Source of the DNA: Sulfitobacter sp.
GTDB taxonomy: Bacteria; Pseudomonadota; Alphaproteobacteria; Rhodobacterales; Rhodobacteraceae
Length of the DNA stretch: 64,000 nt
NCBI GenBank assembly: GCA_029252045.1
Contig: JAQXCD010000004.1
Coordinates: forward strand, 5,675-69,674
Direction: 5' to 3'
Within the stretch, counting starts at the first letter, position 1, and the number at the start of each line of letters is the position of its first letter. Below the pieces are notes generated by a model. The model worked only from the letters and a program-made list of their open reading frames with translations, had not been told where the DNA came from and did no database searches. This document shows positions 100-50,571 of this stretch, piece by piece. A program made the translations under genes and the position numbers.

Positions 100-1332
100 A
101 TGATAGATTTTTTGACCCTTGATGACGCGCGCAACCAGCCAGCATGGCGGCGCCCGAAAGTGTTGCTGTTTGTGATGGCTTTGGCCATGCCGATTGCGTT
201 TTTTACCTGGTATGCGTTGTTGAACAACTTTGTAAAAGAAGTGGCGCAGTTTGACGGGGCCGACATCGGGCTTTTGCATACGATCCGGGAAATTCCGGGA
301 TTCCTGTCTTTTCTGGTGATCTTTTTGATCATCATTATCCGCGAGCAGGTGTTGGGGTTGGTCTCGCTTATGGTGTTGGGGGCGGCGACGGCTGTGACGG
401 CATGGTACCCGCAGCTGACGGGTATTTTGATGCTGACTTTCCTGAGCTCGGTGGGGTTTCACTATTACGAGACAGTAAACCAGTCCTTGCAGCTGCAATG
501 GTTGCCCAAGGATAAGGCGCCGCAGATTATGGGCTGGCTGATGGCGACAGGCTCGGCTGCCACGTTTTGCGTGTATTTTGTGATCATGGTTCTGTGGGAG
601 CCCTTGGGGCTGACCTATGATATCGTGTTTATGGCGGGTGGCGGATTGACGATGGCGATTGCGCTGTTTGCGTTGCTGGCCTTTCCGCAATACGAGAGCC
701 CGCATCCGCAGATCAAGAAGCTGGTCCTGCGCAAACGCTACTGGCTCTATTATGCGCTGCAATTCATGTCAGGCGCGCGGCGGCAGATATTCATGGTCTT
801 TGCCGGCTTTATGATGGTCGAGAAGTTCGGCTTTCAGGTGCATGAGGTGGCGGGATTGTATTTGGTGAACCTGTTACTGAACATGATCATTGCCCCCATG
901 CTGGGCCGTATTGTTGCACGGTTTGGCGAGCGTAAGGCCTTGATGTTCGAATATACCGGATTGGTTTGTGTGTTTCTGGCTTACGGCGGCGTCTACTTCT
1001 TTGACTGGGGCTTTCAGGTGGCGGCGGTACTTTATGTTCTGGACCATATGTTCTTTGGTCTGGCGCTGGCGTTGAAAACGTATTTCCAGAAGATTGGCGC
1101 GCCCGGAGATATGGCGCCCACGGCGGCGGTGGCCTTTACCATCAACCACATCGCGGCGGTCTTCTTGCCGGTTAGCCTAGGGTTCTTGTGGCTGGCGTCC
1201 CCTGCGGCGGTGTTTTTGTTGGCGGCGGGGATGGCATCGGTGTCCTTTGTGCTGGCGACGATGATCCCGCGCCATCCGGATGCGGGCAATGAGACGGTGT
1301 TTGTCGCGCGCAGGCTCAAGGCGGCGGAATGA
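100..1332 (+). CDS. MFS transporter
   Basis: 410-aa ORF with about 12 hydrophobic segments and an MFS-like loop motif (GRIVARFGERK). Confidence 0.8.
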   Translation: MIDFLTLDDARNQPAWRRPKVLLFVMALAMPIAFFTWYALLNNFVKEVAQFDGADIGLLHTIREIPGFLSFLVIFLIIIIREQVLGLVSLMVLGAATAVTAWYPQLTGILMLTFLSSVGFHYYETVNQSLQLQWLPKDKAPQIMGWLMATGSAATFCVYFVIMVLWEPLGLTYDIVFMAGGGLTMAIALFALLAFPQYESPHPQIKKLVLRKRYWLYYALQFMSGARRQIFMVFAGFMMVEKFGFQVHEVAGLYLVNLLLNMIIAPMLGRIVARFGERKALMFEYTGLVCVFLAYGGVYFFDWGFQVAAVLYVLDHMFFGLALALKTYFQKIGAPGDMAPTAAVAFTINHIAAVFLPVSLGFLWLASPAAVFLLAAGMASVSFVLATMIPRHPDAGNETVFVARRLKAAE

Positions 1333-2722
1333 GCGGGCAGGCCGCTTCCTCACCGGCTCTACTCTCGGGCATGTGGTGCGGATGACAGCCACCGGTGCGC
1401 TGGGCATCACGTTTGTGTTTGTCGTGGATGCGGCGAACCTGCTGTGGGTGAGCCAGCTGGGTGACAGGCAGCTGGTGGCGGCCATCGGGTTTGCCTATGC
1501 GGTGCAATTCTTTTCGGTCTCGATTGCAGTGGGGCTGATGATTGCGGCTACGGCTGTGGTGTCGCGCAGTATTGGCGCGGGGGATCGCGACAAGGCGCGC
1601 CGTCAGGCGGGTGCGGCTGTGGTGATCGCCGCGTGCACACTGGCGGTTGTCTCGGCTTTGATCGTTCTATTCCGTCAGCAGTTGGTAGGCTGGGCTGGTG
1701 CCGAGGGCGAGACGGCGCGGCTGGCGGCCCGCTATCTGGCGATAAGCATTCCCTCCTTGGTGCCGATGTCGGCTGCACTTGTAATGTCGGGAACATTGCG
1801 TGCGGACGGCTACGGGGCGAAGGCGATGTATGTGACGCTTCTGGCGGGCGTGGTACTGCTGATCATTGATCCCTTTCTGATCTATTATTCCGGCTGGGGG
1901 CTGGACGGTGTTGCGGTAGGTCTGGTGCTGTTTCGTTTTGCGCTGCTGGCGCTTGCAGTGCGTTTTGCCATCATCGAGATGAACCTGATTGACCGCCCGC
2001 GGCTGAGCACGTTGCGCAATATCGGCGCGCCCTTTGTTGCTGTGGCCATCCCTGCAATTGCGACACAGATGAGCACACCTGTGGGCAACTACCTGTTGAC
2101 CCGGGTGATGGCCCCTTACGGCGATGATGCCGTGGCTGCATGGGCGGTGGTTGGGCGGCTGACGGTGGTGGTGTTTGGCGGTATATTTGCGCTGTCGGGG
2201 GCAATTGGTGGCATCTTCGGCCAGAACTTTGGCGCGGGGCAGATGGAGCGTGTGCGCAGCACCTACCGCGATGCGCTGGTATTTTGCCTGATTTATACGC
2301 TGGTCGCCTGGGGCCTTTTTGTGCTGCTGGTGCCCTATATCATCGCCGCGTTTGATCTGAGCGGGCAGGGCGCGGATGTGTTGAATGCCTTTGCGGTGAT
2401 CGGAGTGGGCGGGTTTATTTTCTTTGGCGCGCTGTTTGTGTCGAATGCTGCGTTTAACAATCTGGGCAAGCCGGGCCGCTCGACTTTGGTGAACTGGACC
2501 AAGGACGGCGTTCTGAGCCTGCCAGCGGCGCTGTGGTTCGCGGGCATTTTCGGCGCTGCGGGTGTGATTTATGGCCAAGCGGCCGCAGGGATTGTCGTTG
2601 GTGCGGTTTCGGCCACTTGGGGCTGGTTTTATGTAAAGGGGCTTAGGCCTGTAGATGCGGTTGCCCTTGACCCTGCCGCACCAGCGCCCTACCCGAACCC
2701 TGACAGACACAGGAGCCGATAG
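1329..2722 (+). pseudogene. MATE-family efflux transporter, frameshifted near the start (or 1-nt sequencing error)
   Basis: ATG at 1329 overlaps the MFS stop (ATGA) and reads MSGQ. The MATE body (GRFLTGSTLGHVVRMT...GQNFGAG) is in another frame. One extra G at 1340-1341 would restore MSGQGRFLTGS. Confidence 0.65.
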
Positions 2723-3595
2723 ATGCCAACCTTTACCGCACTGACCACGCTGACAGGCCGCGAGCCTGCCTATACTTTGGGCGAAGCCATGGAGGCATTG
2801 AACCCTGAGCCGACAGGTGTGGGTGTTTTCGAGATGGAAGACGGCTCCGGCCTGTGGGAAGTCGGCGGATATTTCGAGGAAGCGCCGGATGAGGCGGCGT
2901 TGGCCGTGCTTGCAGCCGCATTGGGGGCAAAGCCCTTTGTGGTGTCAGAGTTGCCCGAGACAGATTGGGTTGCACATGTGCGCCGCGAGCTGGCGCCCGT
3001 CGAGGCGGGACGCTTTTTTGTCTATGGTTCACATGATGCGGATAAAGTGCCGGCCGATTGCGAGCCGCTGTTGATCGAGGCGGCAATGGCATTTGGTACG
3101 GGCCACCATGGCACGACGCTGGGCTGCTTGAAGGCGTTGGACATGCTGGCGAACGACGGATTTGTGGGCAAACGTGTGGTGGACATCGGCTGTGGTACAG
3201 CCGTGTTGGCCATGGGCGCTGCAAGGATCTGGGCGGATACCGTTCTGGCGTCTGACATTGACGAAGTCGCTGTAGATGTGGCGCGTGCCAATGTTGTGGC
3301 AAACGGGCTGGAGGGCCGTGTCAATTGTGTCGAGGCCGCAGGCTTTGATCATCCCTCACTGGCAGAGGCCGCGCCCTTTGATCTGGTGTTCGCCAATATC
3401 CTCAAGGGACCCCTGATTGCACTGGCCCCTGATATGGCGTGCGTGATGGCGGCCGATGGCTATGCGATTCTTTCGGGTATCCTGAACGAGCAGGCAGACG
3501 AAGTGATTGGCGTTTATGCACAGTCTGGCATCAATCTACACCATCGCGAGAGCATTGGTGACTGGACGACAATAGTGCTTCGGAAAATGACCTAG
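2723..3595 (+). CDS. prmA: 50S ribosomal protein L11 methyltransferase
   Basis: AMAFGTGHHGTT, VVDIGCGTAVLA and FANIL motifs. Confidence 0.92.
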   Translation: MPTFTALTTLTGREPAYTLGEAMEALNPEPTGVGVFEMEDGSGLWEVGGYFEEAPDEAALAVLAAALGAKPFVVSELPETDWVAHVRRELAPVEAGRFFVYGSHDADKVPADCEPLLIEAAMAFGTGHHGTTLGCLKALDMLANDGFVGKRVVDIGCGTAVLAMGAARIWADTVLASDIDEVAVDVARANVVANGLEGRVNCVEAAGFDHPSLAEAAPFDLVFANILKGPLIALAPDMACVMAADGYAILSGILNEQADEVIGVYAQSGINLHHRESIGDWTTIVLRKMT

Positions 3596-3601
3596 AAGAT
3601 A

Positions 3602-3649
3602 CCCCATTTGGGGCCATTGCGCCCCATTTGCCCCACTTTTGCCACATTG
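3602..3649. repeat. Roughly 10-bp-phased CCCCAT-like repeats in a promoter region
   Basis: CCCCATTTG at 3602 and 3622, GGCCATTG at 3612, CCCCACTTT at 3631, GCCACATTG at 3641. The first unit is part of the palindrome CCCCA-TT-TGGGG. Confidence 0.5.
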
Positions 3650-3706
3650 TTTGTCTAAAAATTATCTCAACAACGGTGGGGGCTGTTGCTGAGAGAGACC
3701 ACTGTC

Positions 3707-16707: not shown

Positions 16708-17268
16708 ATGCCCGCATTGATCCCCACCGACCATTACGCAACCATCACATGGTTGGGGGTTGTGCCGGACCGTGCTGCGGGCCTGAAAGCTGTCCCGCGC
16801 GAGGTGCTGGCCTTGGGGTTTGACGGACCCGAGGGCGAAGACCACGGCGGACTAACGCGCCCTTCTTGCAGTCGTGTGTTGTCACAATATCCGCGCGACA
16901 CGGTGATCCGGAACACCCGCCAGCTGTGCGTGATGAGCGCGGAGGAGCTGACTGCCATTGCTGCCGCTATGGGAGTTGATGCGCTGGACCCCAGCTATAT
17001 GAGCGCCACTGTGGTGATTGAGGGCATTGCCGATTTCACCCATGTGCCGCCGTCCTCCCGCCTTCAAGCGGCATCAGGTGCGACGATTGTCGTTGATATG
17101 GAAAACCGCCCCTGCATGTTGCCCGCCCGCGAGATCGAGGCGGACATGCCCGGTGTTGGAAAAGCGATCAAAGGCGCTGCAAAAGGCCGCCGCGGCGTGA
17201 CAGCATGGGTCGAGCGGGAAGGTGTGTTCACACTGGGTGAGCGGCTGCGGCTACATATCCCCGACTAG
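16708..17268 (+). CDS. MOSC domain protein, probably slightly C-terminally truncated
   Basis: GEDHGG, RNTRQL and ENRPC motifs. The frame continues after the TAG as RPWAP, resembling the family tail DQRxW. Confidence 0.8.
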   Translation: MPALIPTDHYATITWLGVVPDRAAGLKAVPREVLALGFDGPEGEDHGGLTRPSCSRVLSQYPRDTVIRNTRQLCVMSAEELTAIAAAMGVDALDPSYMSATVVIEGIADFTHVPPSSRLQAASGATIVVDMENRPCMLPAREIEADMPGVGKAIKGAAKGRRGVTAWVEREGVFTLGERLRLHIPD

Positions 17269-17291
17269 CGGCCATGGGCGCCTGCGATGAT

Positions 17292-17900
17292 CTAGGTGCG
17301 GCCTGCGGCCTCCAGCAGATCAAGCGACTTTGCAACATCTGTCAGGTTCAGCTTGGCAATCTCCTCTGGCGTCAGCGTCCACCACTGGGTCGCCAGCAGG
17401 CGGACCACTGTCTCCTCGTCAAAACGGTATCTGATCAATTTGGCAGGGGTGCCCCCGACGATGGCATAGGGGGCGACATCCTTGGTCACCACCGCGCCAC
17501 CGCCAATGATCGCACCATGCCCGATGGTCACACCCGCCGAGATGATGCACTGCGAGCCGATCCAGACGTCGGACCCGATGGTAGTGGGTTTGTACTGGTC
17601 AAAGGCGGATTGGGGAAAGATATCATCCTCGTTGCGAAAGTGGCGTTTGGCGGCAAAGGCGACGGGGCTGCTGGTGAGCCAGTCGACGGGGTGCATCGGC
17701 GCGCCGATCTCGCAGGCTTTCCCGATTGAGCAATAGCGCCCCACAGTTGTGTTGCGAAAGAATGTGGTGCCATCATTTACAAAGGTGAACTGGCCAATCT
17801 CGCTGTAGTCCCGCACGGTACAAGCACGGCACAGGCGCACGGGTGCCTCCAGTTTGGCGTTTTTGGCAACCGAAGACTTGCTAGGGATGTAGTTTTTCAT
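17292..17900 (-). CDS. CatB/Vat-related hexapeptide-repeat O-acetyltransferase
   Basis: VGRYCSIG, TTIGSDVWIG, IGHGAIIGGGAVVTKDVAPYAIVGGTPAKLIRYRF and WW motifs. Confidence 0.85.
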   Translation of the reverse strand: MKNYIPSKSSVAKNAKLEAPVRLCRACTVRDYSEIGQFTFVNDGTTFFRNTTVGRYCSIGKACEIGAPMHPVDWLTSSPVAFAAKRHFRNEDDIFPQSAFDQYKPTTIGSDVWIGSQCIISAGVTIGHGAIIGGGAVVTKDVAPYAIVGGTPAKLIRYRFDEETVVRLLATQWWTLTPEEIAKLNLTDVAKSLDLLEAAGRT

Positions 17901-18146
17901 GGCTGCCCTTCCGGAGCAAAAGGCAGTGGGTTGACTGCTGGCACCCCTGCAACCTGCCAAACAATGGAGGCTGATTCAATTTTAAAAGCCATAGGTCAGA
18001 CATACGGCAGGTTTCATAAAAGAAACCCTACTGCGACCTGACGCCGCAACGCGGGCTGGAAATGTCGTAATCCATACCTGTCAACGCGAGATGCCCTTGT
18101 ATCAATTCCTCAGAATCTGCCGAACCGGCTCAGAATGGGGAATACC

Positions 18147-19928: not shown

Positions 19929-20831
19929 ATGGCTGCGACAATTATTGACGGTAAGGAATTTGCGGCGCGGGTGCGGGCGCAAGTTGCGACGCATGTGACA
20001 CATCTGAAAGCGGAACACGGGATTACGCCGGGGCTGGCGGTTGTGCTGGTTGGTGAAGACCCTGCCTCACAGGTTTATGTGCGCTCCAAGGGTAAAATGA
20101 CTGTCGAAGTTGGCATGAAATCGGTTGAGCATAAACTGGATGTTGAGACACCCGAGGCCGAGTTACTGGCACTGATTGACCAGTTGAACAATGATCCTGA
20201 AATTCATGGTATTCTGGTGCAGTTGCCGTTGCCCAAACATCTGAACGAAGATTTGGTAATCAACTCGATCGATCCGGCCAAGGATGTGGATGGGTTCCAT
20301 ATCTCGAACGTCGGGCTGTTGGGCACCGGCCAAAAGAGCATGGTGCCTTGTACCCCGCTGGGTTGTTTGATGATGTTGCGCGACCACCACGGGTCTATTT
20401 CTGGTATGAATGCGGTTGTAATCGGGCGCTCGAACATCGTCGGCAAGCCCATGGCGCAGTTGCTGTTAAACGACAGTGCAACAGTCACAATCGCGCACAG
20501 CCGGACCAAGGATTTGGCCGATGTTGTGCGTCGCGCAGATATTGTGGTTGCGGCTGTTGGCCGTCCCGAGATGGTGCCCGGCGACTGGATCAAGCCGGGG
20601 GCCACTGTGATTGACGTTGGCATCAACCGTCTGGACGCACCTGAGAAGGGTGAGGGCAAGACCAAGTTGGTAGGTGATGTGCACTATGACAGCTGTGCTG
20701 CGGTGGCAGGGGCGATTACGCCTGTGCCGGGTGGTGTAGGGCCGATGACGATCGCGTGTCTTTTGGCCAACACTGTCACCGCTTGCTGCCGTGCAAATGG
20801 TCTGGCCGAGCCCGAGGGCCTAACCGCCTGA
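19929..20831 (+). CDS. folD: Methylene-THF dehydrogenase/cyclohydrolase
   Basis: [31 protein letters not shown] and [11 protein letters not shown] motifs. Confidence 0.97.
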
Positions 20832-21217
20832 GACGACCTGAAACATGATACGGCCTGGCAGGAATGTGAAAGCGCCAGCCACAATCAAGGCCCCGAACAC
20901 AAGCGCCGTCATGCGGCGCTTGTGCTGTTTAAGCGGTGGCTGCGGGCATGGCCGACACCAACCACCAGCGACCAAAGTGTAAACGCCGAGAGCAGATGGA
21001 TGGGGCTGAACGGTCCGACCATTCGAATTTCGTGAATGCCAAAACTGCTGAGGGCGACGATAGCCATCATAATGACCCATGCCCATCCCATCACCCTGTG
21101 CAGCGGGCTGCCTTTGCGTATGGCGAATATACCGACGGTCAGGAGCACCGCGCCAAGGGCAAGGACTGTATGGATCTGGATCACCAGGAATGCTTTTGCG
21201 AGTGGTGCGAGGGTCAT
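20820..21217 (-). pseudogene. DUF2306 membrane protein, frameshifted
   Basis: The N-terminal part (KGSPLHRVMGW...FSPIHLLS) stops at 20909. The C-terminal part (QHKRRMTALVFGALIVAGAFTFLPGRIM) is in another frame ending at 20820. One extra base in the T-run at 20928-20930 rejoins them. Confidence 0.75.
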
Positions 21218-21309: not shown

Positions 21310-22047
21310 ATGACAAGGAAATCCGTGGCGATGGAGTTCACGCTTCGTGAAATATCCAAGTTGCGCATAGCTCTGCTGATCTGGGTGACGCTATCAGTTG
21401 TTGCAGCAGTGGCCGGTCCTTTTGGGACGCTCGAGGCGATGGGGCTTGGGGGGCGTTTGGTGTATTGGAGCGGCGTTGTCGGTGTATCCATCGGGTTGAA
21501 CACGGGAGCAAACGGGCTTGCAGAAGGGCGGAGTTTGATTGTCAGAGCCGGGATCGGTGTCGGCTTTGTCTTGCTGTTGTCGACTGGGTTTCACGTCCTG
21601 AACAGTTTGCTCTTTGACATCTGGGATGGCTTTGCGGACTGGGCTTATTTGACGGCGATTGTTGGTTTGGTGACCGCGGCAGTGCATTAGGTCATCTGGG
21701 GTGTTAGGCCGCATGTGCCGGTAGATACGGACGGGCCAAGAGAGGCCTTCCAGCGCCGACTGCCGTTTGAGGTGCGGGCGCCGTTGATCCGGATCGAGGC
21801 ACAGGATCATTACCTGAATGTTGTGACCCAGAAGGGCAACGCACTGATTTTGATGCGCCTCAGTGATGCGGCTGCTGAGCTTGAAGGGCAGGGCATGCAA
21901 GTTCACCGTTCGCACTGGATTGCCCAAAAGGCTGTGACCAAGCCACGCCGCGAAAAAGGGCGCGATATGTTGGTCATGTCCGATGGGGCAGCCGTCCCCG
22001 TCAGCCGCAGCTACCGCGCGGCGGCGCAGCAAGCAGGGTTCCTCTAG
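21310..22047 (+). pseudogene. Membrane-anchored LytTR DNA-binding protein with an internal stop
   Basis: The TM region (21310-21690) and the LytTR domain (EAQDHY, VHRSHW, VPVSRSY; 21715-22047) are in the same frame, separated by TAG at 21688-21690. Confidence 0.8.
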
Positions 22048-22463
22048 CGCGGGACGGGAACCATCGTGCCTTGCAGAATTGCAATCAGGGTTTGGACGCC
22101 ATCTTTTTCCGCATGCACTTCGGCTGTTACAACGCTTAAGCGCTTGCCCGCTTTGATAACGCGGCCTGTTGCAATCAGTCGATCACCGCGCGCAGGCGCG
22201 AGAAGGTTGAGTTTGATCTCGGCTGTGACAACTTCCATATCAAGCGGGAGCATTGTGAGGGCAGCATAGCCGGCAGCACTATCCCCGATGGAAAAGGTAA
22301 GACCAGCGTGTCCAAAACCTTGATGTTGGCGGGTTCCTTCGAGAATGGGACAGGTGATGCGCACCAGACCGTTTGAGACCTCTGACAGCTCCGCACCAAT
22401 TGTGTGCATCATGGTCTGTGCAGAAAAGCTGGCGGTTATGCGGTCTGTGATGTTGTCGTCCAT
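22044..22463 (-). CDS. PaaI-family thioesterase
   Basis: HQGFGHAG...GDSAAGYAA and EIKLNLLAPA motifs. Confidence 0.88.
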   Translation of the reverse strand: MDDNITDRITASFSAQTMMHTIGAELSEVSNGLVRITCPILEGTRQHQGFGHAGLTFSIGDSAAGYAALTMLPLDMEVVTAEIKLNLLAPARGDRLIATGRVIKAGKRLSVVTAEVHAEKDGVQTLIAILQGTMVPVPR

Positions 22464-22466
22464 GTT

Positions 22467-23129
22467 TTACCTCGGCATTGGAATAGCGGTTGCTGTAGGG
22501 CCGGTTAGCACAGCGATTGCCTCTGGGCGCATCAGAGAACTCAATATGGGTGATTGTGCCCGCAATCCGCCCGTATAGGTGCCGTATGCGGGCAAAATGA
22601 CCCGGTTGCTGTCGATGAGAAAGGCTGGGCGTGTGATGTTACGCCCACTCAGCTCTAATGTGGCTTTCGGGTGGAAATGACCTGAGACCTCACCAATTGC
22701 GGCTTGCCGTGCAATGTGGCGGAAGGTCAGAGGCGCCAGCGGCAACTCCGCCAGATGGGAGCCCCCAAATTCGATTGGCCCCGGATCGTGGTTCCCCTCG
22801 ATCCAGACCCAGCGGCGACCGGCTTGTAAACGGAATACCCAGTCGCGTTCTTCCTGTGGCAGGGAGCGAGCGGCGTCCAGATCGTCGAAGCTGTCTCCAA
22901 GGCAGATAACAGTTCGCGCATGACACAGGGCCAAATCAGCAGCAAGACGGTTTAGAGTGTCACGTGTATCATAGGGTGGCAAAGCTGATCCGCCGCGCCG
23001 AGCAATCCGTTCTGATTTACCGAGATGGAGATCACTGAAAACCATTAAACTTTGTTCTGGCCACCAAAGTGCACCAGAGGCCAGTGCCTTCAGCCCTACA
23101 CCGGAAAGAGTGAAGTCATAACCATTCAT
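22467..23129 (-). CDS. pdeM: Ligase-associated DNA damage response endonuclease
   Basis: SDLHLGK, LGDSFDD, GNHDP and GHFHPK metallophosphoesterase motifs; adjacent to the DEXH helicase. Confidence 0.88.
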   Translation of the reverse strand: MNGYDFTLSGVGLKALASGALWWPEQSLMVFSDLHLGKSERIARRGGSALPPYDTRDTLNRLAADLALCHARTVICLGDSFDDLDAARSLPQEERDWVFRLQAGRRWVWIEGNHDPGPIEFGGSHLAELPLAPLTFRHIARQAAIGEVSGHFHPKATLELSGRNITRPAFLIDSNRVILPAYGTYTGGLRAQSPILSSLMRPEAIAVLTGPTATAIPMPR

Positions 23130-23203
23130 CCTGAATATGTGCCGCAGGCTGTCTCACACCACAAGGGATGAACGATAGGTAGGCTAATGGGGTTACTGTC
23201 GGA

Positions 23204-23399
23204 TTGGGATATGAAAAAGGGTGCAAGGTGGGCCGAGCAGCATTAACGCGTCCTTAACCTTGCTTTGAAATGGTGCAAGGTGCGGTACAGGTATGGGAAC
23301 CGATGGCCGTAAAGGGTGCAAGGCGCGTCGCCTCGGGTGGGTCAAGGCTTTCCTTAGACGCGCCTTCATTCGTTGCTTGCACCCTTTTTCATATCCCAA
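23204..23399. repeat. 196-bp element bounded by perfect 24-bp inverted repeats (MITE/REP-like)
   Basis: TTGGGATATGAAAAAGGGTGCAAG (23204-23227) and its exact reverse complement (23376-23399). Internal GGTGCAAGG occurs three times, plus an inner hairpin AAGGCGCGTC/GACGCGCCTT. Confidence 0.8.
23243..23258 (+). promoter_or_regulatory. CtrA-type box TTAA-N7-TTAAC inside the repeat element
   Basis: TTAA CGCGTCC TTAAC matches the alphaproteobacterial CtrA consensus. Confidence 0.4.
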
Positions 23400-23431
23400 G
23401 AGCAACACTGGCTCTGGGGGTGCAGGTTCCG

Positions 23432-25885
23432 TTAGTTCCCTACTCTCCATTCTGGCTTGTTGGATGGGGGTAGAGTGATTTGCGCTAGGCCGGATGTTTC
23501 CATGAGCTGGCGGGCTTCTTCTGCCAGCAGGCGTTCTTCGGCAGCACCTTTGACAGGGACGCGGCCCATTTCCATAAACATAGGTGCGGCAAGCGGCGTC
23601 ACTTGGCTTAGGGCGAGGTGATCGATGCGTCCCTGGGTGCGTGTCAGCATTTCTTCGACACGACCAAAGTCGACCAACCCATGGAGCGCTTCTTCGCGGG
23701 TGATGTCCAGCATGAGGTGATCGGGGTCGTATTTCGTGAGGGTGTCATAGAGGATATCCGAACTGAAAGTTGCCTGACGCCCTGACTTGCGGGCTTGCGG
23801 GCTATTTCGCTGGATCAAGCCTGCGATGGTAGCGGTCGCCCGAAAGGTGCGTTTCATGACGGCATTTCCAGCCAGCCATTTTTCCATCCCGTTTTGAAGT
23901 GCCTTAGGGTCCAGGAGTGGGATGGGATCGGTGACAGGATCGAGGCTCCAGATAAGAGTTGCATAATCAGTTGCAACAAAACCTAAAGGACCAAGGCCCA
24001 ATTCTTCCATGCGTTTGGTCAGCAGCAGGCCCAGTGTTTGCTGGCCGTTGCGGCCGGCAAATCCGTAGATGACTGTCTGGGCGCGTCCGTCGTGCGGGAA
24101 GCTCTCGACCAGCAAGCGGCCTGGCTGGGGGAGTTGGCTGCGGCTACGTTGTAATTTCAACCAATGAGCTGTGTGATCGGGTAAATCGGGCCAGCAGTCT
24201 TGGGTGAACAAGCGTTGCACGCGCGCGCTGAGTTGGGTGGAGGTGGCGAATTTTGTGCCCATGAAGGTTGCGACTTTGGGTTTCTTTGCGCTGTCACGGG
24301 AGACTTCGACGGTCATCTCGCGCAGGCCTTCGTATTTTACGATTTGCCCACCGATCAGGAAGGTATCGCCGGGAGTGAGGGTCGCGGCGAAGCCTTCTTC
24401 GATTTCGCCCAGTGGTTTGCCGCCGCGGTTACGCTTCAGGCGCACTTGGAGTGTGTCAGTGTCCTGAATGGTGCCGATGTTCATTCTGATGGCGCGGGCT
24501 GTGCGGGGATCGCGGAGCTGCCATTGCCCGTCTGGCCGTTGGATCAGGCGTTGCCAGCGGTCATATGCGCGTAAAGCGTAGCCGCCTGTTGCGCAGAAAT
24601 CGAGGCAGGCGTCAAACTGTGCGCGGGAAAGACCGCTATAGGCTCCTGCGGATGTGACTCCGCGGTAGAGTGTTTCGGGATCGAAAGGACCTGCGCATGC
24701 CCTAATCAGGATATGCTGGCACAAGACATCACGGGGGGCTGCGCCGCGTGGGTCACCGTCAAGTGTGCCGTCCAGCACGGCCTCAAGGGCTGCGATACAT
24801 TCGACAACCTCAAAGCGGTTGGCGGGCACGAGCAAGGCTTTGGATGGTGCGTTGTAGCGGTGATTGGCGCGGCCGATGCGCTGGACAAGGCGTTTGACAT
24901 TTTTAGGGGCGCCGATCTGGATGACCAAATCCACATCTCCCCAGTCAATCCCCAGATCGAGGCTGCCGGTGCAAACAATTGCGCGCAGCTCACCCCGTAC
25001 CATAGCGGCTTCGACGCGCGCGCGTTGTTCGCGGTCTAGGCTGCCGTGGTGGATGCCGATGGGCAGGCTTTCGTCGTTGGCGAGCCAGAGTTTGTGAAAG
25101 AAAATCTCGGCCTGTGCGCGAGTGTTGTGGAAGATCAGGGTTGTGTTGTGGGCTTTGATTTGGTCGAGCACTGCGGGGATAGCATAGGCTGCGCCGCCCC
25201 CGGACCACGGCGGGGGAGCTTTGGTACGCAACATCTGGATGTCTGGGGCGGGGCCGGGATCGGCGAGCAGTATTTCGCAGGGATCGGGGTGGCGGGCCAT
25301 AAGGTGGGCGATGGCGGCGGGGTCCTCGACCGTAGCGGAAAGGCCCACGCGTTTGAGGTTTGGGCATATCGTGTTGAGCAGCGCGAGGGCGAGCATCATC
25401 TGATCGCCGCGCTTGCTCTCGGCCAAGGCGTGGATTTCGTCGATGACGACGCGTTTGAGGCCCGAAAACATCCGCGGTGCGTCCTCATAGCTCAGCAGGA
25501 GTGCGAGGCTTTCGGGGGTTGTCAGAAAGATGTGTGGCGGATCGGCGCGTTGGCGTTTGCGAAGAGTGGCTGTGGTCTCGCCGGTGCGTTCTTCGATCCG
25601 GATGTTCAGCCCCATTTCGGTGACGGGGGCCGTCAGGTTGCGTTTGATGTCGGCTGCAAGCGCTTTGAGGGGGGAGATATAAAGGGTGTGCATGCCTTTA
25701 TGATCCTTCTGCGCCAGATCAATCAGCGTGGGCAGGAACCCTGACAGCGTTTTGCCGCCGCCTGTAGGTGCGATGAGCAGGAGGGCGGGTGCGTCGGCGC
25801 GCTCCAGCATGGCTTGCTGGTGCGGGTGTATGGACCAGCCTTTAGAGGCGAACCAGCTTTGAAAGGTTTCGGGGAGTTTGCACAT
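23432..25885 (-). CDS. Ligase-associated DNA damage response DEXH-box (Lhr-like) helicase
   Basis: APTGGGKT, IDEIHA, GLSAT, HHGSL and QRIGRANH motifs. Start set at MCKLPETFQSWF. Confidence 0.92.
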   Translation of the reverse strand: MCKLPETFQSWFASKGWSIHPHQQAMLERADAPALLLIAPTGGGKTLSGFLPTLIDLAQKDHKGMHTLYISPLKALAADIKRNLTAPVTEMGLNIRIEERTGETTATLRKRQRADPPHIFLTTPESLALLLSYEDAPRMFSGLKRVVIDEIHALAESKRGDQMMLALALLNTICPNLKRVGLSATVEDPAAIAHLMARHPDPCEILLADPGPAPDIQMLRTKAPPPWSGGGAAYAIPAVLDQIKAHNTTLIFHNTRAQAEIFFHKLWLANDESLPIGIHHGSLDREQRARVEAAMVRGELRAIVCTGSLDLGIDWGDVDLVIQIGAPKNVKRLVQRIGRANHRYNAPSKALLVPANRFEVVECIAALEAVLDGTLDGDPRGAAPRDVLCQHILIRACAGPFDPETLYRGVTSAGAYSGLSRAQFDACLDFCATGGYALRAYDRWQRLIQRPDGQWQLRDPRTARAIRMNIGTIQDTDTLQVRLKRNRGGKPLGEIEEGFAATLTPGDTFLIGGQIVKYEGLREMTVEVSRDSAKKPKVATFMGTKFATSTQLSARVQRLFTQDCWPDLPDHTAHWLKLQRSRSQLPQPGRLLVESFPHDGRAQTVIYGFAGRNGQQTLGLLLTKRMEELGLGPLGFVATDYATLIWSLDPVTDPIPLLDPKALQNGMEKWLAGNAVMKRTFRATATIAGLIQRNSPQARKSGRQATFSSDILYDTLTKYDPDHLMLDITREEALHGLVDFGRVEEMLTRTQGRIDHLALSQVTPLAAPMFMEMGRVPVKGAAEERLLAEEARQLMETSGLAQITLPPSNKPEWRVGN

Positions 25886-25982
25886 GGCATGCAAGATAGC
25901 ACTGGAGCGCAAGGGGGCCAGCCCCAATTGGCGCAAGCGCCAATTCCCCCGGAGGATATAGGGCCAAGAAAGATAGAAAAGA

Positions 25983-26781: not shown

Positions 26782-26970
26782 TTACTTCACGATATGTTCG
26801 TCTTTGACGAACATGTTGGCCCAAGCGCGGTCCATCAGGGCAGGGGACATTTGATATGGAATGCCCTCAAAATCGCAAATGGCGATGATCTGGTCGATCA
26901 GGAAGATCGGTTGGTAGTTGGCGTAGGTGTCAAAATCGTTTATGTATCGCGCTTCAGCGAAAGCAAAACA
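26782..26970 (-). pseudogene. C-terminal remnant of the ATPase usually found at the distal end of Roseobacter tad loci
   Basis: A startless 62-codon frame, ...YANYQPIFLIDQIIAICDFEGIPYQMSPALMDRAWANMFVKDEHIVK*, begins right at the cpaB stop. Family assignment is from memory. Confidence 0.6.
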
Positions 26971-26972: not shown

Positions 26973-27824
26973 TTAGTTTGTGCAGGGAATTGGCAGGTTA
27001 ACAACATCGGCGCCGCGGCGGGTCCGGATGGTGCAAACCTTTTCTGCAACTTCTTCTGGCGCTTGAACTTCGTCACGAATATCCAGCAAATCGCGCTGGT
27101 TTACTTCGATATCGCCTGTACCTTCGGAGACATCATCAACACCAACCAGTGCCAGAGACAGGCGGCCAGTCGATTGTGCCTGTGCCAGTGACGCGACCTG
27201 TGTTTGGTCAACAGCCACAGTAACGGTCCGCGCAATTTGGGCGCCTTCTACGTCGCCGGAGCTTTGGTCAACCGCAATCAAGGAGACTTTCGCTTCGATC
27301 AGTTTGGTCACTTCTGTCCGGTTCGAGCCGCCGCCGACTGCGCCGGTCCAATAGATGTCTACGCGGTCACCGGAGCGCAAAAAGCCCGACACGCCGGAGG
27401 ACACGTCAACTTTGATCGCAAATGCACGCATGCCGGGGTCAAGCTGTGAAGTCAGGCCTGCATCCTCACCGGGTTTTGTGATTTTCACGGCGAGCAGGGC
27501 TTCGAATTTCTCGATAGGGCGCAGAACGACGCGCGGCAAATCTGTATTTTCAGGGAAAAGCACTGCGATGTCTTCGTAATATCCTGCGGGCAGGGCTGCC
27601 AAGGGGAAGGGGACTGCCGTTACATCGTCTTTTGTCAGCTTCTCACCGTATTTAAGCGAGCGGGTGGTGACAAAAATGGTTTTCGTTGGGACAATCTGGG
27701 CCTTTTCCGCATCGGCGCGTGCCATTGCGGACTTATATTGCCCGATTTGACCTTTCGCGAGATACACCGCGCCGCCAGCCAACGCGATGCCGACTAACAA
27801 CACGAGTCTAAAAATCATACGCAT
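26973..27824 (-). CDS. cpaB: Flp pilus assembly protein CpaB
   Basis: N-terminal TM helix, SAF-like region, GMRAFAIKVD...GVSGFLRSGDRVD, and G.LSLAL. Confidence 0.92.
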   Translation of the reverse strand: MRMIFRLVLLVGIALAGGAVYLAKGQIGQYKSAMARADAEKAQIVPTKTIFVTTRSLKYGEKLTKDDVTAVPFPLAALPAGYYEDIAVLFPENTDLPRVVLRPIEKFEALLAVKITKPGEDAGLTSQLDPGMRAFAIKVDVSSGVSGFLRSGDRVDIYWTGAVGGGSNRTEVTKLIEAKVSLIAVDQSSGDVEGAQIARTVTVAVDQTQVASLAQAQSTGRLSLALVGVDDVSEGTGDIEVNQRDLLDIRDEVQAPEEVAEKVCTIRTRRGADVVNLPIPCTN

Positions 27825-27944
27825 CTTGTGTTCCTCTTTCGTTTGGATGTCTTGGCGCGCCCGCCAACTACTCGGGCTTCAATCACGATATCCGGTTTTA
27901 TGGCGCCTTCGATCCGCGTTCGGACCGGCGGGCGCCAAAGTGCC

Positions 27945-28145
27945 TTATTGGCCAGGGTTTCGTAACTGGTCCTGATCGGCTTCGGTCAGGTAGGTGCCGA
28001 TGGAAGCGCCCATGGCATCGCTGGATTGTTTGATCGCGACAAAAGCCGAAACAGTTACGATAATGATTGCGGCAGTAAGAACGACCCAATCAACGGTTAC
28101 GGCACCGTCTTCGTTTTTCGTAAAGGAATTGAATTTATGAAGCAT
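27945..28145 (-). CDS. Flp/TadE-like pilin
   Basis: F.KNEDGAVTVDWVVLTAA prepilin motif; ATG at 28145. Confidence 0.8.
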   Translation of the reverse strand: MLHKFNSFTKNEDGAVTVDWVVLTAAIIIVTVSAFVAIKQSSDAMGASIGTYLTEADQDQLRNPGQ

Positions 28146-28257
28146 TTTGACATTTCCGCTGAATGTTTTCGTTACACTGAACTGCGCTAAACGCGACAGG
28201 GGGCTGCATTCCATGCAGAACGCAGCCCCCTGAAGAATTTAGGTGCTTTGGGGAAAC

Positions 28258-28470
28258 TTAGTTTCCAGCAGCCTGCGTGCCGAAGTCAGCCGCGCCAACA
28301 GTCTGTGCGCCGAGGAACGCGCCTGTGTTGGCTGTCATGTCTGCAGCGCCGTCACGGATGGAACCGTAAGCAGCAATCACCAGGCCAACAACAGCAGCTG
28401 TCAGAACAACCCAGTCAACTGTTACTGCGCCGGATTCGTCATTCTTGAAGTTTTTTACGAAAGTCATCAT
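28258..28470 (-). CDS. flp: Flp pilin (major subunit candidate)
   Basis: FKNDESGAVTVDWVVLTAAVVGL; GGAGG ribosome binding site upstream. Confidence 0.85.
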   Translation of the reverse strand: MMTFVKNFKNDESGAVTVDWVVLTAAVVGLVIAAYGSIRDGAADMTANTGAFLGAQTVGAADFGTQAAGN

Positions 28471-28831: not shown

Positions 28832-29506
28832 ATGAAACGCACTTTTCTACCGCTGGCACTGGGTGCCGCGATGGCTTTTTTGCCTGTGGGGGCTGTTGTT
28901 CATGCGGATTCGCCCAAACCATTCGCAGATTTCAAGCCAAAATTCGTAAAACCGCCCAAAGCTGGTGAGCGAAAGCGCGTGAATGTCAAAATAAACCGCC
29001 CCGCTGTGAATGTTACACCGCCAGTTGCGGCCGAATCTGCGGTAGCTGCCGCGCCTTCAGGAGAAATTGCACGGCCCAAGGCAGGACAGTACGATTGGTT
29101 CTGGGATAAAGTATCGCCCGGGCTTGCGCTCGCCGTGATTTCTGTAGAATCGTCGGGGCGCACGGACGCAGTAAGTAGTGCAGGTGCGCAGGGGCTGATG
29201 CAATTGATGCCGGATACGGCCAGTCGCTTTGGTGTGGTTGATAGTAGTGTCACACAGCAAAATATCTCGGGCGGGGTCAAATATCTTGACTGGCTTATGG
29301 GAGAGTTCGCCAACGATCCTATTCTGGTGCTGGCCGGATATAATGCGGGGGAGGGGTCTGTGCGCAAACACGCAGGCGTGCCGCCATTCGCCGAGACACG
29401 TGATTATGTGCCAAAAGTGCTGGCAGCGTTTCAGGTGGCCAAGGGGCTTTGTAAAACGCCGCCCGAGTTGATCTCGGACGGCTGTGTGTTCAATCTGATG
29501 AAATGA
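28832..29506 (+). CDS. Tad-associated lytic transglycosylase (SLT) with a probable in-frame internal deletion
   Basis: VES catalytic motif, GAQGLMQLMP, AGYNAGEG and ETRDYV. WFWDKVSP runs directly into GLALAVISVES. Confidence 0.82.
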   Translation: MKRTFLPLALGAAMAFLPVGAVVHADSPKPFADFKPKFVKPPKAGERKRVNVKINRPAVNVTPPVAAESAVAAAPSGEIARPKAGQYDWFWDKVSPGLALAVISVESSGRTDAVSSAGAQGLMQLMPDTASRFGVVDSSVTQQNISGGVKYLDWLMGEFANDPILVLAGYNAGEGSVRKHAGVPPFAETRDYVPKVLAAFQVAKGLCKTPPELISDGCVFNLMK

Positions 29507-30954: not shown

Positions 30955-31521
30955 TTAAAACAAGCGGACCTGCGTGCCGATTTCGGTCAGCGCAAACAGT
31001 TCCTCGATTTTGTGGTTATACAGTCCGATACAGCCGTCCGAGGATTGGCGCCCGATCTTGCGCGTGTCGTGGGTGCCGTGGATCAGATAAGCAGGCCAGT
31101 CCAAATACATCGCATGTGTGCCCAGCGGGTTGCCGGGGCCGGGAGGCATGTATTTCAGTTCCGGGTTCCGCTCGATCATCGAAGGCGTGGGCGTCCAGTC
31201 AGGGCCGACACGCTTGCGCACAATGCGGGTATAGCCGCGCTTGGTCAGCTCGTCGGTGCGTGGAACAGAAGTTGGGTAGATATTGTAGGTCTCTCCATCG
31301 CCGCTCCAAAAATGCAGCGCCCGCGATGTGAAATCCGCTACAATAGCGCCCTTGCCCAAGCTCTCAAAATGATCCTGCCAGCGTTGCGGCGAAAAGCTCA
31401 TGATGTTGCGGCGGGTGACTGTTACCTCGGCCGGTTGTGTGGCGAGCGCCAAAGACGGGGCGGCAAGGGCGGCACATGTTGTCAGCAACATCGTGCGGCG
31501 CAAATACTTGGGGTTGGTCAT
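30955..31521 (-). CDS. L,D-transpeptidase (YkuD), Tat-exported
   Basis: Twin-Arg signal LRRTML; PGNPLG; HGT...SDGCIGL catalytic motif. Confidence 0.9.
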   Translation of the reverse strand: MTNPKYLRRTMLLTTCAALAAPSLALATQPAEVTVTRRNIMSFSPQRWQDHFESLGKGAIVADFTSRALHFWSGDGETYNIYPTSVPRTDELTKRGYTRIVRKRVGPDWTPTPSMIERNPELKYMPPGPGNPLGTHAMYLDWPAYLIHGTHDTRKIGRQSSDGCIGLYNHKIEELFALTEIGTQVRLF

Positions 31522-34614: not shown

Positions 34615-35765
34615 CTAAACAGGCCGTGACAACAGCCCGCCCGCGCTGCGGGTCACCTTGCCGTCCATCTCCAGCTCAACCAGCGCGGGGGTTATTTGGG
34701 CCGAAGGAACCTGCAAATCACGGATCAGCTGGTCTTCGGCCACGGGGGAGGGGCCAAGGCGCTGAAGGATGGACAAGTGGAGGCTTGCTGCTTCGCGCAG
34801 GGTGCGGCGCGGTTTTGCTGCGGGCGGTTGCCGCGAAATAGGTTGTGTCGCTGCGGGCGGGGTTTGTTCACTATGTAGCGGGGTCAACGCGTCAATAATG
34901 TCAGCTGCATTGCGGATGAGAGTTGCGCCATCGCGGATCAACATGTTGCCGCCTGCGGCGCGGGCATCAAACGGGTGACCTGGAACGGCCAGTACATCAC
35001 GCCCCTGATCCAGCGCATCGCGGGCGGTGATCAGGCTGCCGGATTTGGCGGCCGCTTCGACCACAACGGTGGCGCGGGCAAGACCCGATATAATGCGGTT
35101 GCGGCGCGGGAAGTGCCGCGCGGTAGGTTGTAGGCCCATGGGTTGTTCGGACAAGCGCAGCCCCTGTTTGGCAATATCGTGCGCAAGCGCTGTATTTTCG
35201 GTCGGATAGATGACGTCAACACCACCAGCCTGCACGGCGATGGTACCAAACGGCAGCGCTGCCAGATGGGCCGCTGCATCAATGCCGCGTGCCAGACAGG
35301 ACACAACGACAAATCCCGCCTCGCCCAGCTCATGTGCCAGCGTGCGGGCCATGCGCGTGCCCAGCGAAGAGGCGTTCCGCGCGCCGACCAGTGCGATCAG
35401 GGGCCGTGCAAGCAACGCCGGATCACCGAGGAGCCAGAGAAACGGTGGCGCATCCTCTAGCTCTGCCAGTGCTGCAGGATAGTCCGAATGTGAGATGTGG
35501 AGCAGTTTCGCACCCTGAGCGTGGGCCGCACGCAATTCAGCGCGCACAACGCCTTCGGGACATACTTCATATCCCGAAACGCCCACGGCGCGCGCCACCT
35601 GAGGCAGCGCGGCCAGCGCGTTTTGCGCAGTGCCGTGTTCAGTCAGCAGTCGTTTATACGTGGCAATGCCGACCCGGCGCGAGTGCAACAAACGGAGACA
35701 GGCGAACTGTTCATCTTCCGGGGTGGGGGGTGAGTGGAAGAAGGAAAGTGGTCCTTGTCAGTCAT
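34615..35765 (-). pseudogene. dprA: DNA-processing protein DprA, 5' frameshift and altered signature motif
   Basis: ATG at 35765 (MTDKDHFPSSTHPP) is out of frame with EDEQFACLRLLHSRRVG. Core motifs VGARNAS, FPRRNRIISG and SGSLITA are present, but the SGLARGID motif reads SCLARGID. Confidence 0.7.
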
Positions 35766-46535: not shown

Positions 46536-46539
46536 GGCT

Positions 46540-47696: not shown

Positions 47697-47726
47697 GGAG
47701 AGTGCTTTCGCTTTTGGGAAGGGGCC

Positions 47727-48374
47727 CTAGTCGGGTGGGTAATGGCGGATCAGTGCCATCTTGTCCTGTACCCCCAAGGTTTTCAAGCTGTTGTCAGCGT
47801 TTTGCGACAGGATCGAGCGGGTGAGGTAATGGGGGTTCTGAATATCGGTGATCAGACCCAAAGCTTGGGTGATTTCCTCCAGCATGACAGATTCGTATTG
47901 CCGCAGGGTGATCGTGTTGGAAAAGCCAATGACGGCGCCGGTGATTGTGCTGCCCGTGACATCCAGTGCGGTGATGGCGTTTGCCATGGTCTTGCCTTTG
48001 AGAAGATCGGGGGCAGGGATCACATTGCCGCGCGGCACGTCCAGCAAGTGAATTGCGATATCCGGATTTCCCTCGTCCGGGACCAGCGTCAGACCCATGC
48101 CGGCTGCATTGAGCCGTTGCACGGCGCGCACTGCGGCGGCTTCCGCGCGTTTAAGCTTACCGCCGAGAAACGAGGGCGCGCGTTCGACAATACCGACGGT
48201 GAGGGTTGTTTTGCGCCATCTGTAGAAGGGTTTGGTGCAAGGGCCGTCCGGTGGTGCTGCACAGGCCACAAGACGGTAGAACCCCCTATCATCCAGCGGG
48301 CCGTTACTGTCCACAAAGTCCTGTGCTTGCGCTGTCCCTGCCGCACAGGCCAGCGCAAGGAGCAGACGGTTCAG
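47727..48374 (-). CDS. DUF2927-like exported protein; start codon non-canonical (CTG) or lost
   Basis: The frame extends to a CTG overlapping the mtnP stop, giving the signal peptide NRLLLALACAAGTAQA. Contains EEITQALGL. Confidence 0.6.
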   Translation of the reverse strand: MNRLLLALACAAGTAQAQDFVDSNGPLDDRGFYRLVACAAPPDGPCTKPFYRWRKTTLTVGIVERAPSFLGGKLKRAEAAAVRAVQRLNAAGMGLTLVPDEGNPDIAIHLLDVPRGNVIPAPDLLKGKTMANAITALDVTGSTITGAVIGFSNTITLRQYESVMLEEITQALGLITDIQNPHYLTRSILSQNADNSLKTLGVQDKMALIRHYPPD

Positions 48375-49243: not shown

Positions 49244-49324
49244 GGTGTATCCTCAGATCGATTTTGGCGATGGTGGCGCGGGGCAAAGGTTAATGCAACC
49301 GAACAAATAGTGAGAATTCGGGGG

Positions 49325-49372
49325 GTACCACGCGTACACCCCCTGTGCACCCTGCGTACACCAGCCGGTGTA
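49325..49372. repeat. About 11-bp-phased GT(A/G)CACC repeats with a terminal hairpin
   Basis: GCGTACACC at 49332 and 49354, GTGCACC at 49345, then TACACC-agcc-GGTGTA. Confidence 0.5.
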
Positions 49373-49418
49373 TGGGCTGGCGGTGAGAGTCAGGTCATCA
49401 ACTTGGCCGGTAAAGGCG

Positions 49419-50571
49419 CTAAGCCGTCCCTAGCAAATCTCGGGCGATGCGTTCAAAGATGGCACTTCCGATGGGGATCAAGTCATCGGGGAAATCGTAG
49501 TCCGGATTGTGTAGCGCGGCATAGTCTTCGCCCGGTCCCAAGCATAGCATTGCAGCTTTGGCACTCCATCCAAACACGCCGAAATCTTCTGACGCGCGCA
49601 TGGGAACACCTGCATCACCGTAAGGGACGTCGATTGCTTCCATAGCTTTTGTCGCCACGGCATGAGCGTCTGGATCATTGATTGAGGCCGCAAAGTTATC
49701 GCACACCTCAAAATCCACACTAAGGCCGAATTACTCTGCGGCTGTGACGGCAAGAGTGCGGGCCATGGTTTCGAGATGTTCCATGCCTTCGTCACCTGTT
49801 GTCCGCAAAGTGGCAAAGATTTCGGCTTCTCCCGGTGCCACGCCAAATGATGGCTCGCCAATCTTTACATGGGTAATCGTCACCAGTCTGAAATTTGCAT
49901 CAAGTGATCCGCCTTGCCCGAGAGCATCCAGCGCGGGGATCAGCTCGGCAACAGCCTGTGCCGGAGAAATGCCATCTTCGGGATCAGCTGCATGGGCCGT
50001 TTTGCCGCCAAGCTTGATCTTGAGCCCCAATGAAGCACAGTTGATTAGTCCAGCGCAGGTAGAGACGTGTCCGAAAGGCCGTCCGGGTAGGATATGAATG
50101 GCAAACGCCCAGTCTGCCTGAATTTCTTGATAAGCAGGATCGGCAACAACAGCTTTCGCGCCGCTGCCGTCCTCTTCTGCGGGCTGGAACATGAGAATGA
50201 CACGCCCACATGCGACAGGTTGGCGGGATATCATGCGCCCCAAGGCGAGCAGCATTGTCATGTGGCCGTCATGGCCGCAAACGTGGCTTTTTCCGTTTGT
50301 CAGCGACGACCACGCGATGTCGTTACGTTCCTCAATCGGCAGTCCGTCAAGCTCGGCACGAAAGAGGACCGTTGGACCGTCTTTGCCGGTGTCAAAAACC
50401 GCAGCCACGCCATGGCCACCTAACCCGGTCAGGATGCGCGTTGGTGACATAGGTTTAAGCGCCGTGACAATTTTGCGGGGGGGTTTCGACTTCTTCGCCG
50501 GACAATTCTGGATAGCGGTGCAGTTCACGGCGGAATTCGGTGAGTTCCATCTAGTCAAGATTTGTTAGCAT
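49419..50571 (-). pseudogene. M20 amidohydrolase pseudogene
   Basis: RRELH..PELSGEE, FRAELDGL, CGHDGH, QPAEE and SEDFG motifs are present, but with TAG at codon 7 (50551-50553), a +1 frameshift in G7 (50477-50483) and an in-frame TAA (49731-49733). Confidence 0.88.

Follow-up and report, generated by a model that had tools for sequence, protein, structure and literature searches.

Recent decay of accessory genes, among them the Tad pilus locus and dprA, in a marine Sulfitobacter species

Does a stretch of roseobacter DNA in which damaged accessory genes lie among core genes record the degeneration of a whole genome, or the loss of particular functions? We addressed this question in a window of 64,000 nucleotides (nt), positions 5675-69674 of contig C4 of the Sulfitobacter assembly G000, which comprises 3.08 Mb in 68 contigs, has a completeness of 90.2% and a contamination of 0.17%, and is small within its genus. 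A first-pass annotation, made from the letters of the window, had listed about ten damaged accessory genes between unbroken core genes and had attributed them to relaxed selection or drift, as in a recently host-restricted, symbiotic or bottlenecked roseobacter. Comparison with syntenic regions and with a sister lineage showed that nine of the ten listed features exist, of which six are clearly inactivating and three (MOSC, SLT and DUF2927) are mild or ambiguous; the tenth, a MATE transporter gene, is intact. All 25 named core genes in the window, which account for 49% of its coding bases, are uninterrupted and full length; 8-10 point lesions placed at random would leave every one of them untouched with a probability of P = 0.001-0.004, which upholds the claim that the damage is non-random. 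As developed below, relaxed selection on a limited set of functions is the explanation that we hold to be probable.

Lesions were examined at the level of assembled contigs. For the comparison between species, syntenic regions from five congeneric Sulfitobacter species, 72-86% identical to the window in DNA, were used; the open reading frames (ORFs) of these relatives were called and then compared with the window by tblastn and MAFFT. The sister lineage consists of the PRJEB22097 assemblies, which belong to the same species and are 99.4% identical to the window over 48 kb, with 181 substitutions. Replicate contigs were located in public assemblies through the exact products of neighbouring intact genes.

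Damaged genes and their recurrence in other assemblies

Six features form the confirmed and INACTIVATING group:

20823-21217, minus strand: gene for a DUF2306-like membrane protein, lacking 1 nt at 20932
21310-22047, plus strand: gene for a LytTR-domain membrane regulator, with Leu TTG>TAG at 21688
25983-26777, minus strand: gene for a 3-hydroxyisobutyrate-dehydrogenase-like NAD(P) oxidoreductase, in which codon 31 of 264 is changed from Tyr TAT to TAG at 26687
26785-26949, minus strand: AAA-type ATPase remnant, the last ~50 codons of a 435-amino-acid (aa) ATPase and the right-hand remnant of a 10.5-kb deletion
34615-35765, minus strand: dprA pseudogene, with a 10-nt deletion at 35722, at about codon 15, that shifts the frame
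49419-50571, minus strand: pseudogene of an M20 peptidase/amidohydrolase, carrying three lesions when set against an intact 383-aa allele

Each of these had been listed in the first-pass annotation, and alignment bore all of them out. The TAG codon of the oxidoreductase gene leaves a largest restart product that lacks the Rossmann domain, and that of the LytTR gene splits the membrane half of the regulator from its DNA-binding domain. The DUF2306 deletion, seen against both the sister lineage and the relatives, moves the last ~35 conserved residues into another frame in a two-frame alignment with genomes G012 and G007. In the M20 gene, all three lesions (a Lys>stop change of the AAG>TAG type at 49733, one inserted nucleotide at 50477 and a Leu>stop change at 50552) were located against the sister allele, from which the window differs at just five places; no syntenic copy of this gene was found in G005, G012, G002, G003 or G007. 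In the sister lineage the corresponding genes are full length, encoding products of 264 aa (oxidoreductase), 238 aa (LytTR), 132 aa (DUF2306), 383 aa (M20) and 386 aa (DprA), as is the MOSC-domain gene considered below.

The dprA deletion sits in a C-rich, Pro-coding tract. A second change in the same gene, Gly>Cys at codon 35298-35296, converts SGLARGID into SCLARGID within the SGLARG[IV]D motif of DprA, which is invariant in 32 other Sulfitobacter species, so that both the frameshift and the motif change first reported for dprA are confirmed. The 10-nt deletion is common to the window, to ERZ27289196 and to the CAST23 sample SAMN19118281, and the motif change is placed later than the frameshift because one contig with the 10-nt deletion still reads SGLARG. 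A third strain, SAMN09406050, which is 99.6% identical, carries a different, 17-nt deletion in the same tract. The C-rich tract near the 5' end of the gene, CCACTCACCCCCCACTCCCACCCACCCC (window 35700-35745), is a mutational hot spot, having suffered the 10-nt and the 17-nt deletion in different strains. Between window and sister lineage, dprA has a ratio of nonsynonymous to synonymous polymorphism (pN/pS) of ~1.15. The full-length sister allele (aligned to window 34618-35691) has Ser>Phe in an otherwise invariant AAAKSGSLITA stretch, and selection on it may also be relaxed.

The ATPase remnant belongs to what is left of a Tad/Flp pilus locus, next to which lies a further altered gene:

26973-28470, minus strand: orphaned left end of the tad locus, with cpaB at 26973-27824 (Pfam RcpC) and flp pilin genes at 27945-28145 and 28258-28470
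28832-29506, plus strand: gene for an SLT lytic transglycosylase beside the tad locus, shortened in frame by a deletion of 162 nt (54 aa)

The remnant, for which no Pfam match was obtained, is the C-terminal end left behind by a 10.5-kb deletion between 13-nt direct repeats, with its junction at the repeat 26927-26939, in agreement with its annotation as a tad ATPase remnant. The deletion took cpaC, an OmpA-like gene, tadZ, cpaF, tadB, tadC, TPR genes and the prepilin peptidase; the genes orphaned by it were identified from orthologue alignments and gene calls on sister contigs, and no tad genes were found elsewhere in G000. The SLT deletion is clean and lies between 17-nt direct repeats, with its junction at 29102-29118. 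Some of the deletions, to judge from these repeats, are microhomology-mediated. The SLT deletion is real, as had been noted, but its effect is mild or ambiguous: the Pfam match is nearly unchanged (profile positions 11-106 versus 10-106; 80.7 versus 90.3 bits) and the catalytic Glu-Ser is retained. In the sister lineage, SLT has an independent +7-nt frameshift or is intact. The tad locus itself is present there, but cpaB, cpaF, tadC and the AAA ATPase gene carry stops or frameshifts, some of which are polymorphic among the samples of that lineage. In a neighbouring small-genome species (G002, contig C8), cpaB is interrupted by two in-frame stops and tadC is frameshifted, a case of independent decay of the same locus.

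Two further genes are altered in ways that leave their loss in doubt:

16708-17295, plus strand: MOSC-domain gene, with Gln CAG>TAG at 17266, nine codons before the ancestral stop at 17293
47727-48374, minus strand: DUF2927-like gene, in which the in-frame signal-peptide codons include no ATG, GTG or TTG

The early stop in the MOSC gene is present as claimed, but it removes the last 9 aa only, and the 186-aa product keeps a complete Pfam MOSC domain; the sister lineage has CAG and a 195-aa product. Adjacent to it lies a hexapeptide-repeat acetyltransferase gene (17292-17900, minus strand), in a stretch (17293-18006) that is different in every other species compared, yet common to the window and the sister lineage. 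For the DUF2927-like gene, the lack of a canonical start in front of the signal peptide was confirmed, but whether it amounts to damage is ambiguous: a CTG overlaps the upstream TGA, a GTG at 48314 opens a 195-aa frame, and the identical 195-aa form is called in every strain of the species. The missing start is probably not a recent lesion, and the gene could well be alive.

The one feature that did not survive comparison is the MATE frameshift, where the annotation had merged two neighbouring genes into one:

100-1332, plus strand: MFS_1 transporter gene (Pfam MFS_1), intact, with full-length matches of 88-92% aa identity to orthologues of 410-447 aa
1280-2722, plus strand: MatE (MATE) efflux gene, intact, aligned over 1340-2719 to its orthologues in G005 and G012

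Each aligns end to end, at 89-92% identity and with no stop, with orthologues of its own, those of the MFS gene being 410-412 aa long in this comparison, which rules out a single frameshifted gene. MatE shares 89-90% aa identity with the relatives' orthologues (463-467 aa) over 1340-2719, with no stop or frame change, and Pfam MatE is matched in two stretches of the 1280-2722 product. It differs from the relatives in its start only: their overlapping start is not conserved, and the window ORF opens at ATG 1280/1289.

Replicate contigs with 99.9-100% identity to the window came from ENA (ERZ27289195/196/200/221/225), from Logan (SRR14511837/839/912/914) and from a third-party assembly of sample SAMN19118281 (CAST23). 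They differ from the window by 0-14 single-nucleotide polymorphisms and are therefore separate assemblies of the same population. Between them, these contigs match the window to the base at the TAG codons of MOSC, LytTR and the oxidoreductase, at the deletions in DUF2306 and dprA (the 10-nt one), at the SLT junction and at each of the three M20 lesions. The MOSC TAG recurs in ERZ27289200 and ERZ27289196, the oxidoreductase TAG in ERZ27289200 (a JGI contig has TAT there), the LytTR TAG in five independent contigs including SRR14511837 and SRR14511914, the DUF2306 deletion identically in four independent contigs, the SLT junction in ERZ27289196, and the split 239+95-aa calls of M20 in ERZ27289196 and ERZ27289221. 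The tad junction is spanned by no ENA, Logan or SAMN19118281 contig; an exact-pattern scan recovered it in the JGI contig Ga0210307_1402952. Every point lesion and both the SLT and tad junctions were thus recovered in at least one other assembly, across several runs and projects, and instead of homopolymer slips the lesions show substitutions and multi-base deletions. Full-length orthologues are also present in the other species G005, G012 and G002 and, for some genes, in G003 or G007. Together, these comparisons of contigs show that the lesions are biological and not assembly errors.

A distance of 250 nt separates the oxidoreductase TAG (26687) from the tad deletion (26927-26939), and every one of the four possible combinations is represented among the assemblies: both in the window, the TAG alone in ERZ27289200, the deletion alone in JGI Ga0210307, and neither in the PRJEB22097 lineage. 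Recombination, recurrent deletion or chimeric contigs would account for this pattern.

Timing, selectivity and the genome-wide picture

Relative to the sister lineage and the other species, the lesions of the window are derived; they arose within ~0.6% sequence divergence and are polymorphic among strains. The sister lineage has lesions of its own, in SLT, YkuD, cpaB, cpaF, tadC and the AAA ATPase gene. YkuD, an L,D-transpeptidase gene (window 30955-31521), has its ancestral form in the window, whereas a 10-nt insertion near the 3' end in the sister lineage gives a product of 171 aa versus 188 aa.

Over 31 intact genes, the two lineages differ with a pS of 0.009 and a pN/pS of 0.31. A pN/pS of ~0.3 is usual at a pS of 0.009, owing to the time dependence of dN/dS. 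The dN/dS comparison, proposed as a check on drift, could thus be made between two lineages, but its outcome is not diagnostic of drift and is compatible with ordinary, very recent divergence. In the broken genes, pN/pS was 0.54 (small counts). These genes evolve in a multi-hit, neutral-like manner, as exemplified by the three M20 lesions and by dprA with its high pN/pS and its later motif change. Full neutrality of the non-core genes would predict 2.7 nonsense changes on the window lineage, and five were observed there (P = 0.14); such changes in dispensable genes thus go essentially unpurged, without being demonstrably in excess. Separately, in the block 22044-25939, a 4HBT thioesterase gene, a metallophosphoesterase-like gene and the Lhr helicase gene together hold 14 nonsynonymous differences and 1 synonymous difference between window and sister lineage, unlike the remaining genes, in which the proportion is ~1:1.

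We extended the analysis to the genome with 441 ORFs from 476 kb of the isolate-grade relative G005 (100% complete, 30 contigs) and curated the result by hand, removing automated lesion calls that were artefacts of over-extended N-termini (e.g. L17, GreA, L25, thymidine kinase). In this conservative screen, broken orthologues numbered 13 of 342 (3.8%) in G000 versus 1 of 350 in the reverse screen of G005 (Fisher P = 0.0008), the sole case in G005 being a degraded IS110 transposase. Four of the 13 lie in the window and nine elsewhere; a denser accumulation in the window than in the rest of G000 was considered and rejected (4/52 versus 9/290, P = 0.12, not significant). In the same syntenic region, G003 and G012 have no lesions and G002 has two, both in tad genes. 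Outside the window, a 5.5-kb stretch of another contig (C7:5359-10862) contains a sulfotransferase-like gene with two TAG stops, a DUF2332 frameshift and a DUF4893 TAA stop, interspersed with intact L25, pth and beta-lactamase-family genes; these lesions recur in independent assemblies, and an intact DUF2332 allele is present in the NCBI metagenome-assembled genome (MAG) GCA_029253145.1.

In pelagic roseobacter MAGs, pseudogenes make up 3.5-15% of coding sequences by Pseudofinder (PMC12661815). The excess of broken orthologues in G000 is modest, elevated yet inside this published range. The genome-wide count supports the first-pass annotation in the excess over G005, but not in its expectation that such decay would be unusual for a GC-rich roseobacter. 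Crude coding density, obtained with the same caller, was 87.6% in G000 and 85.3% in G005, and the G+C content of the window (58%) falls among those of the relatives' syntenic regions (54-64%). No expansion of insertion sequences (IS), for which a raised load had been envisaged, was visible in a whole-assembly self-BLAST: there is one repeat pair of at least 300 bp only, although draft and MAG assemblies tend to have repeats collapsed or missing.

The Tad locus and dprA across Sulfitobacter

In Rhodobacterales, Tad/Flp pili and DprA-dependent DNA acquisition have both been reported to be controlled by CtrA, and DprA is required for the recipient capability of the gene-transfer agent (GTA) in Rhodobacter capsulatus. 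In the species studied here, tad and dprA are both hit, and two further species of the genus have likewise lost or broken the pair. Among the other Sulfitobacter species, 80 in number, 76 have a match to cpaF; the frame is open in 75, and in G076 a contig end truncates it. The gene is absent or in fragments in G000, G031, G043, G072 and G092. dprA, which is close to universal, is intact in ~73 of 77 other species and frameshifted in G000, G043 (C107:2800-6200), G070 (C36) and G092 (C1:2232000-2236500). Neither G043 nor G092 has an intact cpaF or an intact dprA. The joint loss of cpaF and dprA has a Fisher P of 0.0005, or 0.006 without G000, in both cases not corrected for phylogeny. Because G092 is a 100%-complete genome in 5 contigs, this joint loss is not only an effect of MAG quality.

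A wider loss that would take in ComEC and part of the GTA genes was also considered, as Pfam searches found neither, and was rejected in favour of assembly gaps. In contrast to the known Rhodobacterales system, the GTA cluster is seemingly present but split by a contig break, across the end of C25 and the start of C40, with the GTA_TIM domain not in the assembly, and the comEC region is unassembled: the trpGDC-moaC-moeA-lexA-comEC-gltX-gltA region of the relatives, core genes included, has no counterpart in G000 and forms part of the missing ~10%. Loss of DNA uptake at the level of the whole pathway is not supported, because the ComEC and GTA gaps are due to assembly. FliF likewise gave no match in the Pfam search of G000, a 90%-complete draft.

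Relaxed selection and the alternatives

We consider it probable, with moderate confidence, that this marine Sulfitobacter is subject to function-specific relaxed selection, in which particular genes undergo neutral decay and microhomology deletions while the core remains under normal selection. Purifying selection would have lapsed on a limited set of genes: those of the Tad/Flp pilus with the neighbouring SLT and AAA ATPase genes, dprA, the LytTR regulator and a few enzymes and membrane proteins. Mutations in them (single-base nonsense changes, short-repeat slippage, deletions between 13-17-nt direct repeats) would go unpurged, building up at about the neutral rate and varying by strain; further hits would come next, and finally whole loci would be deleted, with the core genes under normal selection throughout. 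The cause may lie in a changed lifestyle, probably in a free-living habitat, that leaves surface attachment and DNA uptake behind, and not in genome-wide drift. Of the two options in the first-pass annotation, relaxed selection is retained, since the lesions are biological, non-random and fit relaxation on particular functions; drift across the genome is held to be less probable.

Several points weigh against this reading. Some of the replicating assemblies may stem from one study. Certain same-species assemblies (SAMN09406081, SAMN09406120) have split thrC, M16 peptidase and FAD oxidase genes, which reflects strain-specific decay or assembly error, single metagenome contigs not being error-free. 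A crude ORF caller and hand curation underlie the genome screen, which covered ~15% of the genome. The count of nonsense changes matches full neutrality of the non-core genes, which weak general selection or selection for loss could explain, and the argument from lifestyle is one that we only infer.

Selection for loss deserves attention, although we regard it as unlikely. Here the inactivation of the Tad pilus, SLT and DprA would have been favoured, through escape from pilus-dependent phages or through savings on attachment and DNA uptake, and the similar losses would be parallel adaptation. It draws support from the independent hits on SLT (a deletion in the window, the +7-nt frameshift in the sister lineage), from the two different dprA deletions, from tad being broken in the sister lineage and G002 and deleted in the window, from the loss or breakage of both cpaF and dprA in G000, G043 and G092 although they are intact in most species, and from nonsense changes at or above the neutral expectation. 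Parallel hits are, however, equally expected in a neutral gene, notably in a slippery C-rich tract; the oxidoreductase, M20, LytTR and DUF2306 genes have no evident tie to pili or DNA uptake; and related genomes are non-independent samples. A linked or adaptive loss stays in consideration because of the joint cpaF/dprA loss across species together with the independent alleles within the species. As a tentative and rather doubtful proposal, the Tad pilus (with SLT) and DprA might form a functionally linked module in Sulfitobacter that has been lost repeatedly and jointly, possibly under positive selection for escape from pilus-specific phages or following abandonment of pilus-dependent DNA uptake.

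Less probable still is genome-wide relaxation of selection or drift after a bottleneck or host restriction, under which lesions would fall in any non-essential gene. The roughly tenfold higher frequency of broken orthologues than in G005, the pN/pS of 0.31 between lineages, the roughly neutral rate of non-core nonsense changes and the small genome for the genus would all fit it. Against these stand the coding density, the lack of IS expansion and of any drift towards AT, a pseudogene share far below that of recently host-restricted bacteria and within the roseobacter MAG range, and a pN/pS that is the usual one for such a low pS; in addition, many metagenomes across several projects contain the species, and multiple haplotypes of it co-exist. 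The analogy with a host-restricted or symbiotic bacterium, drawn in the first-pass annotation, is accordingly not supported, because coding density is normal and IS repeats are absent from the draft assembly; a G+C content within the relatives' range and the 3.8% of broken orthologues point the same way.

That the lesions are assembly, consensus or binning artefacts of a MAG is very improbable. G000 is a draft of 68 contigs at 90% completeness, one public assembly of the species (SAMN09406081) splits core genes, and the four combinations of oxidoreductase TAG and tad deletion could mean chimeric assembly. Yet identical lesions come from different assemblers, runs and projects, they comprise substitutions and deletions of 10 nt, 162 nt and 10.5 kb rather than homopolymer slips, the core genes carry none, and the sister lineage has intact alleles. 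Readthrough of the in-frame TAG codons by an amber suppressor or recoding, which would leave the genes functional, can be dismissed as next to impossible: although TAG is the codon at the MOSC, LytTR and oxidoreductase stops and at two of the four clear nonsense changes outside the window, the 90%-complete assembly yielded no tRNA with a CUA anticodon, TAG terminates 549 of 2845 predicted genes (19%), MOSC and LytTR among them, it stands for four residues (Gln, Leu, Tyr, Trp), and at this codon usage TAG should make up 52% of random nonsense changes, with TAA nonsense also occurring.

The preferred reading, function-specific relaxed selection, places this species beside marine roseobacters in which pseudogenisation and genome reduction have been described, with which it shares a probably free-living habit and a smaller-than-average genome (10.1101/2021.01.15.426902, on CHUG; 10.1101/2024.02.04.578831, on neutral reduction; PMC12661815). 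Also shared are strain-specific disabling mutations in accessory genes, a pseudogene content of a few percent, and deletion after inactivation. It differs from those studies in concerning a Sulfitobacter species known from metagenomes only, in resolving decay between lineages 0.6% apart, and in showing independent alleles in the same genes (dprA, SLT, tad). A study of Ruegeria as a "generalist Roseobacter lineage" is said to describe a related case of pseudogenisation and genome reduction. Host-restricted bacteria such as Mycobacterium leprae, Sodalis, Yersinia pestis and Salmonella Typhi share recent nonsense changes and frameshifts in accessory genes, multi-hit pseudogenes and an intact core. 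In host-restricted decay, however, pseudogenes reach tens of percent, coding density is reduced and insertion sequences proliferate, whereas this Sulfitobacter has normal coding density, no IS expansion and no known host association, and its pseudogene share lies about an order of magnitude below that of M. leprae or Sodalis.

In summary, this is a new example of a known process at unusually fine resolution; it is no new kind of system, and there is no sign of a symbiont. Unrelated public assemblies that contain the same alleles make it possible to verify the lesions of a draft environmental genome independently of reads. What emerges is a fine snapshot of reductive evolution in an abundant marine genus, in which intact, point-mutated, multiply hit and deleted alleles co-exist in one species at 99.4-100% identity. 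Of greatest interest is that the Tad pilus and DprA are repeatedly lost together, which offers a testable lead on the connection between attachment and DNA acquisition in roseobacters. If the two do form a linked module, the species would have been caught in the midst of losing it, with intact, broken and deleted alleles still side by side.

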